A DNA stretch of 19,974 bases, from NCBI GenBank assembly GCA_048941265.1, contig JBHLNT010000069.1, positions 1 to 19,974 of the forward strand, in the 5' to 3' direction. Of the stretch, positions 14,157 through 17,065 are shown piece by piece. The position numbers were made by a program, and so were the translations under genes. The notes below the pieces were generated by a model, which had not been told where the DNA came from, searched no databases, and saw nothing but the letters and a program-made list of their open reading frames with translations. How positions within the stretch are numbered: position 1 is the first letter of the stretch; each line of letters starts with the position of its first letter. Source of the DNA: Promethearchaeota archaeon. GTDB lineage: Archaea > Asgardarchaeota > Lokiarchaeia > Sigyniarchaeales > SOKP01.

Positions 14157-14534
14157 CTACGACCAAGCCAGTTTATTGACTAAAATTGACCATTCTAATA
14201 AAATCAAACTTGTTTCGGCATCTGTATGAATTAGAAGATAATCTCCTTCTTTTGTGATTGAACCGGCAACATTACCTTTCCCTCCAGCTATATTTTTCGC
14301 AGCTAATTGGATATCATCATTTTTTAAGATCGCAAATCTAGAGTTTTGATAGGTGAGAGAGGGTTCTTTTTCTTTCCAGGCTTTAAGAATAGATTTACCC
14401 TCTGCTTGAGATAATTCCGCCGCATTTCCAGATTTAAAAATGATTTCTCCTTTATCATTTATAAGATATACATCGGTAACTCCTTCATATTCGTTTAAAT
14501 CGTTTACTACACGATTAAATTTATCTTGATCCAT
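14157..14534 (-). CDS. Profilin-like protein (Asgard profilin; profilin/roadblock/longin-like fold)
   Basis: 125 aa: N-terminal helix, VYLINDKGEII hairpin, then SLTYQNSRFAILKNDDIQLAAKNIAGGKGNV, which resembles (from memory) the Loki profilin strands S(L/I).IQG.KY.IVENT.ER.I.TN..GKG; C-terminal helix. Confidence 0.68.
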   Translation of the reverse strand: MDQDKFNRVVNDLNEYEGVTDVYLINDKGEIIFKSGNAAELSQAEGKSILKAWKEKEPSLTYQNSRFAILKNDDIQLAAKNIAGGKGNVAGSITKEGDYLLIHTDAETSLILLEWSILVNKLAWS

Positions 14535-14705: not shown

Positions 14706-15488
14706 ATGAAAAATTTGGTTCTTTACGATAAAATTTACAATATCTCCAATAAGTCGCAGGAAAAAGAAGTATATGTAAGATATTTAAAATACCTAAACGA
14801 AAAGACAAAAGGATTTTCACAAACCTCGATTCAGATTAAAAAATTAAGGAAATTTGATAAAAGATTCGAAATTTTAATAGATGGTCCCGAGGAAATATTC
14901 GTCTTTAATTTAATAAAAAAAGAAATCGGCTCTGTTAATGAATTCAACGATATAGAAGTAGGTAAACAATATAAGGGAACCCTAATTGATGTGGGAAAGT
15001 TTGGCTTTGGAATTTTCGTTGACTGTGCAATATTAAATCCCCAGATAGATGTTTTATTAACTTTAAATGTATTGAGGGATCAGCTATGTGCTGGAAAAAA
15101 GAAATCTGTACGAGAGATAATTAAGGCGTATGATTTTATTGATCATTTTCCAGTAGAAGTTAAAATAACAGAAATCGATGCTGAAAACCATCAAATTCAA
15201 GGAAGATTAAGCGACGCATCCGTAGGTCTCTATCAAAAAATTGTTAGCGAAAACCTGGAAGGAATTTTTGTGAGCGGGGCCACCAAAAACCAATTTAAAA
15301 AAGCACTTATTAAGCGGGGACATTTACGAGATATTATCTCAGTAGAACGTCATGGATTTCTAGAAAATATTGTTATTTTAAAAGAAGGCACCGACGCCCC
15401 GGGTATCATAGCTCATATAGGAAAATACTTGAAAAATTGCAAACTGAGTGCCATACGACATGAAAGAATCTGCAAATTATTAGAATGA
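14706..15488 (+). CDS. DUF2110 family archaeal conserved protein (S1/OB-like central region)
   Basis: IDGPEE....NLIKKEIG, YKGTLIDVGKFGFGIFVD, FIDHFPVEV, GHLRDII.VERHGFLE, GTDAPGIIAHIGKYL are recalled as DUF2110 motifs. Confidence 0.78.
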   Translation: MKNLVLYDKIYNISNKSQEKEVYVRYLKYLNEKTKGFSQTSIQIKKLRKFDKRFEILIDGPEEIFVFNLIKKEIGSVNEFNDIEVGKQYKGTLIDVGKFGFGIFVDCAILNPQIDVLLTLNVLRDQLCAGKKKSVREIIKAYDFIDHFPVEVKITEIDAENHQIQGRLSDASVGLYQKIVSENLEGIFVSGATKNQFKKALIKRGHLRDIISVERHGFLENIVILKEGTDAPGIIAHIGKYLKNCKLSAIRHERICKLLE

Positions 15489-15508
15489 ATTGTTAAAAAT
15501 GAAAATAA

Positions 15509-15611
15509 TGAGCCCGGGGAGGATCTCGTTGTGCTATGATGTCGAACACAATATCGAACTCCCGACCTATGCGGTGTAAGCGCATCGTCATAACCACTAG
15601 ACCACGGGCTC
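15509..15611 (-). tRNA. tRNA-Val(TAC) with a 30-nt intron in the T-loop (59/60; intron 15523-15552)
   Basis: Minus strand: GAGCCCG TG GTCTAGTGGTTATGAC G ATGCG CT-TAC-AC CGCAT AGGTC GGGAG TTCGAT[ATTGTGTTCGACATCATAGCACAACGAGAT]C CTCCC CGGGCTC A. Removing the intron gives a standard 73-nt tRNA; junctions form a BHB (central helix TTCG/CGAG, bulges ATA and ATC). CCA not encoded. Confidence 0.93.
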
Positions 15612-15643
15612 TTACTTAAAGGGAAATATTCTTTCTAATAAAA

Positions 15644-15747
15644 CGCAAGCGGTGGGATTCGAACCCACGGATCCGTTCGGACACCGGATTAGCAATCCGG
15701 CGCTTTAGGCACGTTCATAACGCTCTACCAGGCTAAGCGACGCTTGC
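15644..15747 (-). tRNA. tRNA-Ser(GCT) with a 20-nt intron in the D-arm (about 22/23; intron ~15705-15724)
   Basis: Minus strand: GCAAGCG TC GCTTAGCCTGGTAG[AGCGTTATGAACGTGCCTAA]AGC G CCGGA TT-GCT-AA TCCGG, long variable arm TGTCCGAACGGATC, GTGGG TTCGAAT CCCAC CGCTTGC G. Relaxed BHB-like junction. Long variable arm and G73 fit Ser. Confidence 0.9.
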
Positions 15748-15871
15748 AGATTTTTAAAAAAGGCTACTTACCTTATATTTTGAATATAACAAATGAAAAT
15801 TTTAATACTTTTTCATAAGTTTTTATGGATAAAATATAAAAGAAAAAGAAATGACCAACTTTCAAAATAAT

Positions 15872-16357
15872 TCATTCTGAAATTATCTCAAAAACCATCT
15901 TTTCGATGATCGGTTTCTTAGTATAGCGTTTATCATAATACCAGCCGACTAAATGTGCTTTCTGATCCCTTTCAGGCACGGGAGGAATTACTATGATCAT
16001 CACACCATTAGAGAGATATTTTAAAATGCGCTTATCGATCCCATGGAGCTTTTCATTTCCAGAGGGATGACTGTGCCATTGCCACACTATATCTGGAAAA
16101 GGTGGCTCTTGCTTAAATTTGCGCATATTATAGATTTTAGATTTCTTATATCGCATCCAACTTCTTGGTTTGACATGTGCCTTCGTCTTTCTAAGGTCAG
16201 GATTCATAATAAAGTTATTTACTATTCCAAAATTCTCTTTACGCTCGGCAAATAGCCAACCATGAATAATATAGGGAATCTCTTCTTTCGCTTTTTCTGT
16301 AATCTCTTTAAATATCCTTTCTGGGATGAGATAACGAAAATCCTTTGCTGAACTCAT
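15872..16357 (-). CDS. JAB/MPN (Mov34) domain protein with an atypical JAMM motif
   Basis: IVWQWHSHPSGNEKLHGID fits HxH-x7-(S)-x2-D with S replaced by H; N-terminal helix followed by PYIIHGWLF (cf. PxExxGxL); MIIVI strand after the motif. Confidence 0.72.
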   Translation of the reverse strand: MSSAKDFRYLIPERIFKEITEKAKEEIPYIIHGWLFAERKENFGIVNNFIMNPDLRKTKAHVKPRSWMRYKKSKIYNMRKFKQEPPFPDIVWQWHSHPSGNEKLHGIDKRILKYLSNGVMIIVIPPVPERDQKAHLVGWYYDKRYTKKPIIEKMVFEIISE

Positions 16358-16589
16358 AATTTTCGTTAATGAAGCAAAAAATTTATAATTTTCGCTTACC
16401 TATTTCAAACTCTAATAGTTCGAGAGGGAAATCCCTAAATCATGTATTTGAGGGATAATTTCTCTTTTTTAAAGGATAACACAGTTTAAATAGGACTAAT
16501 TATGGAGAATTCGTAAAAATAATATATCAAAATAGATTTTTTAATATCATTACCATAATAATATAGAATTAAAAAACACATTCATAAAT

Positions 16590-16691
16590 GCAGCTGTAGC
16601 CTAGTTGGTAAGACGCTGGCCTTGAGTGTTTTTTATAACCACGACAGCCAGTGCGCGTTAGCGCTCGGGGGTTCGAGTCCCTCCAGCTGCG
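16590..16691 (+). tRNA. tRNA-Ser(TGA) with a 19-nt canonical intron (37/38; intron 16627-16645)
   Basis: GCAGCTG TA GCCTAGTTGGTAAGAC G CTGGC CT-TGA-G[TGTTTTTTATAACCACGAC]A GCCAG, variable arm TGCGCGTTAGCGCTC, GGGGG TTCGAGT CCCTC CAGCTGC G. BHB-like junction with one mismatch in the central helix. Confidence 0.9.
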
Positions 16692-16726
16692 TTTTTTAAA
16701 AGAAAATTCTCACGCAACGAAAATAT

Positions 16727-16830
16727 GGGCTATTGGCGCAGTCAGGTAGCGCAACCGGCTCTTAACCGGCAGGTCGGGGGTTCGATACTCCCATTCGAAA
16801 AGAAGGGACGCGAAATTCCCTCATAGCCCG
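16727..16830 (+). tRNA. tRNA-Lys(CTT) with a 30-nt intron in the T-loop (59/60; intron 16787-16816)
   Basis: GGGCTAT TG GCGCAGTCAGGTAGCGC A ACCGG CT-CTT-AA CCGGC AGGTC GGGGG TTCGAT[ACTCCCATTCGAAAAGAAGGGACGCGAAAT]T CCCTC ATAGCCC G. BHB: central helix TTCG/CGAA, bulges ATA and ATT. Confidence 0.93.
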
Positions 16831-16831
16831 C

Positions 16832-16855
16832 TTTTTTCATTTTAAATTTTTTTAG
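16832..16855 (+). terminator. Oligo-T tracts after tRNA-Lys; putative archaeal terminator of the Ser(TGA)-Lys(CTT) transcript
   Basis: TTTTTTCATTTTAAATTTTTTT directly after the discriminator base. The region is generally AT-rich, so this is not very specific. Confidence 0.4.
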
Positions 16856-17065
16856 ATTTAGAACTTTTAGCTTTCTCTTTAATTTTCTGTAATTTAATAT
16901 AAATAGATTCAAATTTAATTATAAATCAAGCTATTATTAAAATTAAAGAACAAAATGATCATTTTTTTTAAAAATTAAGCTTAATATTGATATGTTATTT
17001 TAAGAAATAAATTCAATAATTTAATATCAATTTTTAAAAATAAAATAAGAAAAGGTGAACGTTAT

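Follow-up and report, generated by a model that had tools for sequence, protein, structure and literature searches.

We analysed a 19,974-nt stretch of DNA (the window; contig JBHLNT010000069.1, here C343) from the Promethearchaeota archaeon assembly GCA_048941265.1 (here G000), in which four tRNA genes, each interrupted by one short intron, lie within positions 15509-16830. The genes form two divergent pairs on either side of a 161-aa open reading frame (ORF; 15872..16357, minus), Ser-Val on the minus strand and Ser-Lys on the plus strand, just where a preliminary description of this DNA had placed them:

15611..15509, minus: tRNA-Val(UAC), discriminator A at 15509, 3' CCA not encoded
15747..15644, minus: tRNA-Ser(GCU), class II with a long variable arm, discriminator G
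16590..16691, plus: tRNA-Ser(UGA), class II, discriminator G
16727..16830, plus: tRNA-Lys(CUU), discriminator G at 16830

All candidate bulge-helix-bulge (BHB) motifs were enumerated, each was excised in silico, and the product was scored with ARAGORN; the genes were also read by hand. A BHB was defined by a 4-bp central helix with two 3-nt bulges, one per strand, each cleaved after its second base, along with one or more flanking helices, either h (exon) or h' (internal to the intron). Following excision, all four genes regained a cloverleaf with a 7-nt anticodon loop, the conserved D- and T-loop bases and the expected anticodon, with ARAGORN scores of 118.8 for Val, 122.1 for Ser(GCU), 121.3 for Ser(UGA) and 119.9 for Lys. 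When plain ARAGORN was run on the unspliced DNA of the whole window, none of the four was detected. The preliminary description was therefore right that these genes adopt a standard cloverleaf only once an insert is removed, and it was also right in assigning the Val and Lys inserts to 59/60 and that of Ser(UGA) to 37/38, junctions that match intron-less orthologues (see below). The introns are:

15552..15523, minus: Val(UAC) intron, 30 nt, position 59/60, strict hBHBh' motif
15724..15705 (20 nt, position 22/23) or 15723..15706 (18 nt), minus: Ser(GCU) intron, D arm, HBh' motif
16627..16645, plus: Ser(UGA) intron, 19 nt, canonical position 37/38, relaxed BHB
16787..16816, plus: Lys(CUU) intron, 30 nt, position 59/60, near-strict motif

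In Val and Lys, the motif is built upon the T stem. At the 3' end of the intron, CGAG (Val) or CGAA (Lys) pairs with the invariant UUCG of the T loop, giving central helices with four of four pairs that stack on the 5-bp T stem (the outer helix) and are flanked by 3-nt bulges; the inner helix of Val has 7 bp. Unconstrained minimum free energy (MFE) folding of the whole precursor recovered this arrangement for both genes. In Ser(UGA), the central helix CUUG/CACG forms three of four pairs between an outer helix of 7 and an inner helix of 3 bp, which places it in the relaxed class; most intron-bearing relatives read CAAG and form all four pairs. Ser(GCU) has an inner helix of 4-5 bp and no stacked outer helix, hence HBh'. 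As a control for chance, each intron was shuffled 5000 times and the shuffles that equalled the observed quality of central and inner helices were counted: 0 for Val, 8 and 10 for the 18-nt and 20-nt versions of Ser(GCU), 14 for Ser(UGA) and 54 for Lys. In addition, when a window of the same length was slid elsewhere within the same gene, none of the 44-56 placements equalled the observed BHB quality. Considering both controls, we judge the BHB motifs to be well above chance.

Standard annotation performed poorly on these genes, as had been thought possible. The preliminary description had suggested a run of ARAGORN -i, which called two of the loci and mis-typed both, Ser(GCU) as Gly(gcc) and Ser(UGA) as Ala(tgc); these calls were set aside, their identities being wrong and introns outside the anticodon region being beyond the scope of the program. 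With the Rfam tRNA model, only the two plus-strand genes exceeded threshold. Ser(UGA) scored 45.5 bits with a 22-nt unaligned insert in the anticodon loop, and Lys(CUU) gave a partial match (16732..16794, model positions 6-65) in which the 3' strand of the T stem was built from intron bases. Unspliced Val(UAC) scored 28.5 bits, under the 29-bit cut-off, and Ser(GCU) gave fragments only. Further Rfam matches that fell below threshold in 15400-16900 (Plastid-psbI-rps4, bantam and others) were dismissed; that to the Plastid-psbI-rps4 3'UTR element (15644-15692, plus, 32 bits, the cut-off being 68) represents the antisense strand of the T and variable arms of Ser(GCU).

Relatives of the locus provided a check on the junctions that does not depend on the BHB motif. 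Two queries from the locus matched 32 and 37 of 41 genomes, G000 included, and the same excision and scoring procedure was applied to 60 retrieved loci, with genes scoring at least 112 being kept. This recovered 11 orthologues of Val(UAC), 18 of Ser(GCU), 16 of Ser(UGA) and 18 of Lys(CUU), and introns proved to be variably present in all four. The 59/60 intron of Val is present in 4 orthologues and absent from 7; that of Lys is present in 9 and absent from 8, with one further gene bearing an intron elsewhere. The 37/38 intron of Ser(UGA) is present in 12 and absent, at the same junction, from 4 (G003, G006, G009, and G013), and the D-arm intron of Ser(GCU) is present in 12, one of them of a differing type, and absent from 6. 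Junctions read from intron-less orthologues agree exactly with the predicted ones for Val, Lys and Ser(UGA), and within 1 nt per side for Ser(GCU). In relatives belonging to the same genus or family, intron-less counterparts with the architecture of the spliced form were found for Lys in G001, Val in G002, Ser(UGA) in G003 and Ser(GCU) in G005; the spliced Lys exons are identical to the G001 gene at 75/75 positions.

Comparison with intron-bearing relatives showed exons to be conserved far better than introns. Against the congener G001, Val is identical at 73/73 exon and 23/30 intron positions, and Ser(UGA) at 81/84 and 11/23; Lys against G007 is identical at 74/75 and 25/30, and Ser(GCU) against G003 at 84/86 and 16/18. 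With exons matching those of the closest relatives at 96-100% identity and introns diverging, selection on the spliced product is indicated. The locus is also syntenic across the family: the 161-aa ORF lies at the corresponding place in 17 other genomes. Its identity is 74-97% in 16 of these, and in G016 a partial match of 123 residues has 61%. The window's four genes do not encode the 3' CCA, which is apparently encoded in some orthologues, namely Val of G010 (loci L045/L007), Lys of G020 (L043) and Ser(GCU) of G013 (L021/L054). Among the recovered orthologues, a Ser(GCU) and a Lys(CUU) gene belong to an atypical array in G004 (L027 28-1526 and L057 557-2055) made up of seven tRNA genes, none with an intron (Asn, Ile, Lys, Arg, Arg, Leu, and Ser). 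G004 is a congener whose relatives carry interrupted genes, and the Lys and Ser genes of the array, the two that were aligned, are clearly unlike the orthologues; the array may be viral, mobile or contaminant DNA.

The exact splice register of Ser(GCU) is the least certain of the four. An insert at about 22/23 in the D arm had been proposed; the D-arm location held up and insert-free orthologues favour 22/23, but the register is ambiguous by one base per side. With a 20-nt intron at 22/23, the central helix is UGGU/GCCU, with three of four pairs in G000. If both cuts are moved one base inward, the intron is an 18-nt, perfect-BHB version (15706..15723) that leaves an 11-nt D loop, and the central helix becomes GGUA/UGCC with four of four pairs. 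This shorter intron also yields a product scoring 122.1 in ARAGORN, and its central helix is fully paired in 9 of 11 insert-bearing orthologues, vs 5 of 11 for the longer one. However, all five insert-free orthologues (G005, G013, G014, G017, and G018) read GGTAG.AGCG, the sequence left when the 20-nt intron is removed. Moreover, of the 11 insert-bearing orthologues, one has T at the 5' disputed base and one has C at the 3' disputed base, variation that would be expected of intron rather than D-arm bases, and in the MFE fold the position of the 5' bulge agrees with the 20-nt register. We therefore consider 20 nt at 22/23 the probable reading and the 18-nt version a credible but less probable one.

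To place the locus in its genomic context, the whole assembly (5.01 Mb, 30.5% GC, 361 contigs, 91% complete, 4.8% contamination) was surveyed. Rfam, scoring 150 of 405 first-look candidates, returned 22 tRNA matches, and plain ARAGORN returned 10 tRNAs, several of them weak. We scanned the genome for BHB candidates, excised none, one or two, and scored the products with ARAGORN, filtering on intron position, intron length and mature length; seeding on GC islands was dropped, as it missed genuine tRNA genes of 48-51% GC. The census contained 37 loci, of which 31 scored at least 114: 6 intron-less, 19 with one intron and 6 with two. Thus, at least 25 of 31 high-confidence tRNA genes are interrupted, by 31 introns, about 25 of which are non-canonical. 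Ten introns lie in the T loop, seven in the D arm, five in the variable region or 5' T stem, two in the anticodon stem, one near position 10 and four at 37/38; two, in Leu-CAA, are of uncertain position. These figures depend on the BHB motif and are a lower bound, since roughly one in three of the anticodons expected (Met, Phe, Trp, Pro, Tyr, Glu, Gly-GCC, and others) escaped confident recovery; these probably need three excisions or have relaxed motifs. Two long Rfam tRNA matches, C183:8413-8549 (137 nt) and C212:3129-3233 (105 nt), gave no confident cloverleaf from one or two excisions, and they too probably hold more introns or relaxed motifs.

The preliminary description had spoken of an intron-rich tRNA set, which the census bears out, and had named intron-less copies of the same isoacceptors elsewhere, with these loci silent, as one observation that would speak against its reading. 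In the 91%-complete assembly, Val-UAC, Ser-GCU, Ser-UGA and Lys-CUU were each found once only, and Ser(GCU) is also the sole decoder of AGY codons found. Since the assembly holds no other copy of these isoacceptors, the four loci must supply their tRNAs. Three other isoacceptors do have an intron-less second copy, Ala(UGC) at C258:3128-3199, Thr(CGU) at C195:4619-4690 and Arg(UCU) at C261:690-764, with intron-bearing partners on C107/C222, C70 and C189, respectively. The intron-less Ala(UGC) and Thr(CGU) copies have only 49-51% GC; because C258 also bears a gene for the splicing endonuclease EndA (see below), the Ala(UGC) copy belongs to the organism.

The architecture of EndA, which had been put forward as a point to settle, was examined in the same assembly. 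Among seven candidates scored, two paralogues matched PF01974, one on C258 (107 bits, 201 aa) and one on C323 (69 bits, 198 aa). Residues 22-201 of the former (alpha) align with the catalytic subunit of Aeropyrum pernix (3p1z_B, 1.8e-37), and it retains the Tyr/His/Lys triad (in DFVVY, EHSPF and SVRKK, respectively), the His being at the position that reads Ala in entry 3ajv. Its loop INKPRL aligns without gaps to VEKPRG of A. pernix, with Lys and Arg opposite K44 and R46 (counted from the start of the alignment). In A. pernix, K44 lies in a Crenarchaea-specific loop and is needed for cutting both canonical and D-loop introns, and its change to Ala is reported to abolish D-loop intron cleavage (PMC3241643). 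Alpha also matches eukaryotic catalytic domains, Sen34 at 7.8e-12 and Sen2 at 1.2e-7. The second paralogue (beta, on C323) is closest to EndA of M. jannaschii (7.5e-26); at what we take to be the positions of that enzyme's catalytic Tyr and His it reads Phe and Ser, and the Lys is retained. By these alignments, G000 encodes an EndA of predicted (alpha-beta)2 type with a catalytic and a non-catalytic subunit, and we infer a broad substrate range, the "relaxed" EndA of the preliminary description.

That description's assignment of the DNA to an Asgard lineage was likewise confirmed. Among the 80 closest loci to EndA alpha in public genomes (72-89% identity), 54 are labelled Promethearchaeota or Promethearchaeia, 13 carry other Asgard labels and 13 are from an "uncultured archaeon". 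The genome is a metagenome-assembled genome (MAG) of Promethearchaeia, i.e., Loki-type Asgard. A weak profilin match in the window, described below, is in keeping with this.

These results suggest that the locus very probably holds four functional, separately transcribed, intron-bearing tRNA genes that are spliced at BHB motifs by an (alpha-beta)2 EndA. Each gene would be transcribed as a precursor with one short intron, and this intron and the adjoining exon would fold into a BHB motif. The endonuclease would then cut once in each 3-nt bulge, at the predicted sites, and an RNA ligase would join the exons to give a normal cloverleaf. Several observations weigh against this interpretation. None of the sequencing runs listed as holding 15480-16860 is an RNA run, and the A/T-rich element found at about -25 to -35 upstream, as well as the T run past the discriminator, is indistinguishable from the 30% GC background. 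The motifs have blemishes in the window's genome, namely the interrupted, imperfect inner helix of Lys, the central-helix mismatch of Ser(UGA) and the ambiguous register of Ser(GCU). The roles of the EndA subunits are read from alignments only, and BHB quality in the census is partly circular, the motif having been used for finding the introns; the motif-free check covers the four window genes only.

If the loci were instead decaying pseudogenes, or if the inserts stayed in the mature RNA, the working tRNAs would be encoded elsewhere. The interrupted Ala-UGC, Thr-CGU and Arg-UCU genes do have an intron-less copy beside them, and the assembly is incomplete. However, no such copy accompanies any of the four isoacceptors of the window, inserts in the T loop and D arm would break the tRNA elbow, and neither the near-identity of exons next to diverged introns nor the synteny of the locus across the family fits with decay. 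We regard this explanation as very unlikely. That the inserts are assembly or binning artefacts, or chance folds, is an idea prompted by the source, a fragmented MAG with contamination, and by a preprint reporting that relaxed BHB-like folds are common by chance (Goswami 2026; 10.64898/2026.10.13.758758). Yet DNA contigs of runs from two studies, one run of which may be the source sample, span all four introns without differences, and no DNA joint skipping an intron was found in them. Homologous introns also occupy the same sites in other genomes, and the shuffle and slide controls reject chance folding, leaving the probability of artefact or chance negligible. Four functional genes spliced at BHB motifs remain by far the better explanation.

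Gain and loss of these introns could be polarised for one clade. A tree of the 161-aa syntenic ORF from 20 genomes, including G000, resolved well only 4 of its 17 inner branches, and G000, G001 and G003 formed one clade (support 100/99), to which polarisation was confined. Homologous 30-nt Lys introns, 77-83% identical to the window's, occur in G002, G005, G007 and G008, and G001 is precisely without it; since the intron is held by these four genomes, its absence from G001 points to a precise loss. Similarly, G003 is without the Ser(UGA) intron that 12 of 16 recovered orthologues carry. In other genomes, unrelated sequences of at least three dissimilar types occupy 59/60 of Lys(CUU), and T-loop introns of three types occur in Ser(GCU). 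Among 25 T-loop introns across genomes, 17 are exactly 30 nt, with unrelated sequences. Their inner helix is paired in 80-88% at the first five positions and 68% at the sixth; when partners are shuffled, pairing is 40-49%, and none of 500 shuffles equalled the observed figure. Because pairing of the inner helix persists across unrelated sequences, it is the structure of the T-loop introns that is kept and not the sequence. Size is narrowly distributed in G000 as well, where 24 of 31 introns have 27-33 nt (8 exactly 30) and those at 37/38 have 17-19 nt.

Since unrelated introns share 59/60 of the same gene and are mostly exactly 30 nt, the non-canonical introns of this Loki-type lineage could conceivably arrive by a size-measured, site-directed process and not by random insertion, a proposal we hold to be speculative and rather improbable. 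EndA and the ligase, acting in reverse, would insert hairpin RNAs of ~30 nt whose 3' end pairs with the T-loop UUCG, and the interrupted RNA would then be copied into DNA; precise losses, as in Lys of G001 and Ser-UGA of G003, would be the reverse path via spliced RNA. A different origin, with an even slimmer chance of being correct, is that the ~30-nt introns derive from a mobile element which spreads by copying among tRNA genes, as proposed for Thermoproteales. Occupation of 59/60 in 10 of the 31 genes of G000 and the prevalence of introns of 27-33 nt would both suit such an element. However, copying between isotypes was unsupported: only 3 of 465 intron pairs in G000 reach 70% identity, of which two (Leu-CAG/Leu-UAG and a pair of Ala-UGC) belong to genes that are paralogues or duplicates, and the third, at 0.72, is inside the range of shuffled pairs (maximum 0.73; 3 of 1395 at or above 0.70). 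The same negative is reported for the focal Asgard families of the preprint (10.64898/2026.10.13.758758). The introns of Leu(CAG) and Leu(UAG) (C113:8689-8721 and C212:3469-3501) are 97% identical and share their D-arm site, as would fit duplication of an interrupted gene followed by anticodon change.

Two ORFs of the window outside the tRNA genes gave faint matches. The 161-aa ORF (15872-16357, minus) contains an HxH...D motif like that of JAB/MPN proteins and matches Pfam Prok-JAB at E 0.005, below the cut-off; a sequence search with it gave no relative in PDB. A 125-aa ORF (14157..14534, minus) weakly matches profilin (E 0.008, below the cut-off), and profilin is the type of eukaryote-like protein expected in Asgard genomes.

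The phenomenon is already known in kind, and the interpretation given in the preliminary description is correct and has been published before. Asgard archaea, including a Lokiarchaeota MAG, have been reported to possess an (alpha-beta)2 EndA bearing the L1 loop, along with disrupted tRNA genes that standard prediction cannot complete, and a connection with the origin of eukaryotic TSEN has been argued there as well (Kaneta 2018; PMC5829648). In three Asgard genomes, 92-95% of tRNA genes are reported to be interrupted, often at non-canonical sites and multiply (Valentin-Alvarado 2024; PMC11291895). A preprint surveying 90 Asgard genomes describes the strongest BHB signal in T-arm inserts, repeated gains, no evident copying route, and two EndA paralogues in 44 of 60 genomes (Goswami 2026; 10.64898/2026.10.13.758758). 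As far as these reports describe them, the published sets resemble ours in having multiple non-canonical BHB introns, frequently in the T and D arms, with gain and loss among close relatives, in the failure of annotators to find introns, especially in the D arm, in the two EndA paralogues and in the lack of any sign of copying between isotypes. The published accounts center on Atabeyarchaeia and Jordiarchaeia/Freyarchaeia (2.2 inserts per gene), whereas the present genome is of Promethearchaeia and has at least 1.0 intron per recovered gene, close to the 0.91 given for "other Asgard families" in the preprint. Non-canonical introns of G000 cluster around 30 nt, in contrast to the medians of 22-23 nt given there (10.64898/2026.10.13.758758).

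What the locus adds is a compact Promethearchaeia example with one junction per motif class (strict hBHBh', near-strict, HBh', and relaxed canonical), clear precise losses within one genus and not gain alone, and a narrow size mode of ~30 nt for non-canonical introns. It also has practical consequences. Of the four genes, all but one are missed or mis-typed by two tools in common use, and genome-wide Rfam finds 22 tRNAs only; because tRNA genes are missed and mis-typed in this way, statements on codon usage or completeness of such MAGs that are made from ARAGORN or Rfam would be wrong. Finally, the four precursors together with the alpha and beta genes would form a ready substrate set for gauging the range of an Asgard endonuclease, an assay named as the missing experiment in the preprint (10.64898/2026.10.13.758758).

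Outside the Asgard archaea, the closest parallel lies in Thermoproteales and other Crenarchaeota, for which BHB and relaxed HBh' introns are described in the D, anticodon-stem, variable and T regions (Sugahara 2008; Fujishima 2010; A. pernix pre-tRNA-Thr, PMC3241643), as found here, and whose introns require an endonuclease of broad specificity, as those of G000 would. The EndA of A. pernix (PDB 3p1z) is like that of G000 in the triad of alpha and the loop Lys and Arg at K44 and R46, accompanied in G000 by a second, non-catalytic paralogue. It differs in that beta of G000 is full-length (198 aa) and nearest to the subunit of the M. jannaschii homotetramer, not to the crenarchaeal beta. Eukaryotic TSEN likewise pairs catalytic subunits (Sen2 and Sen34) with structural ones (Sen15 and Sen54), and alpha of G000 matches both Sen34 and Sen2. 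However, TSEN gauges how far a site lies from the mature domain and works almost exclusively at 37/38, whereas three of the four introns in the window lie away from 37/38 and are defined by a local BHB.

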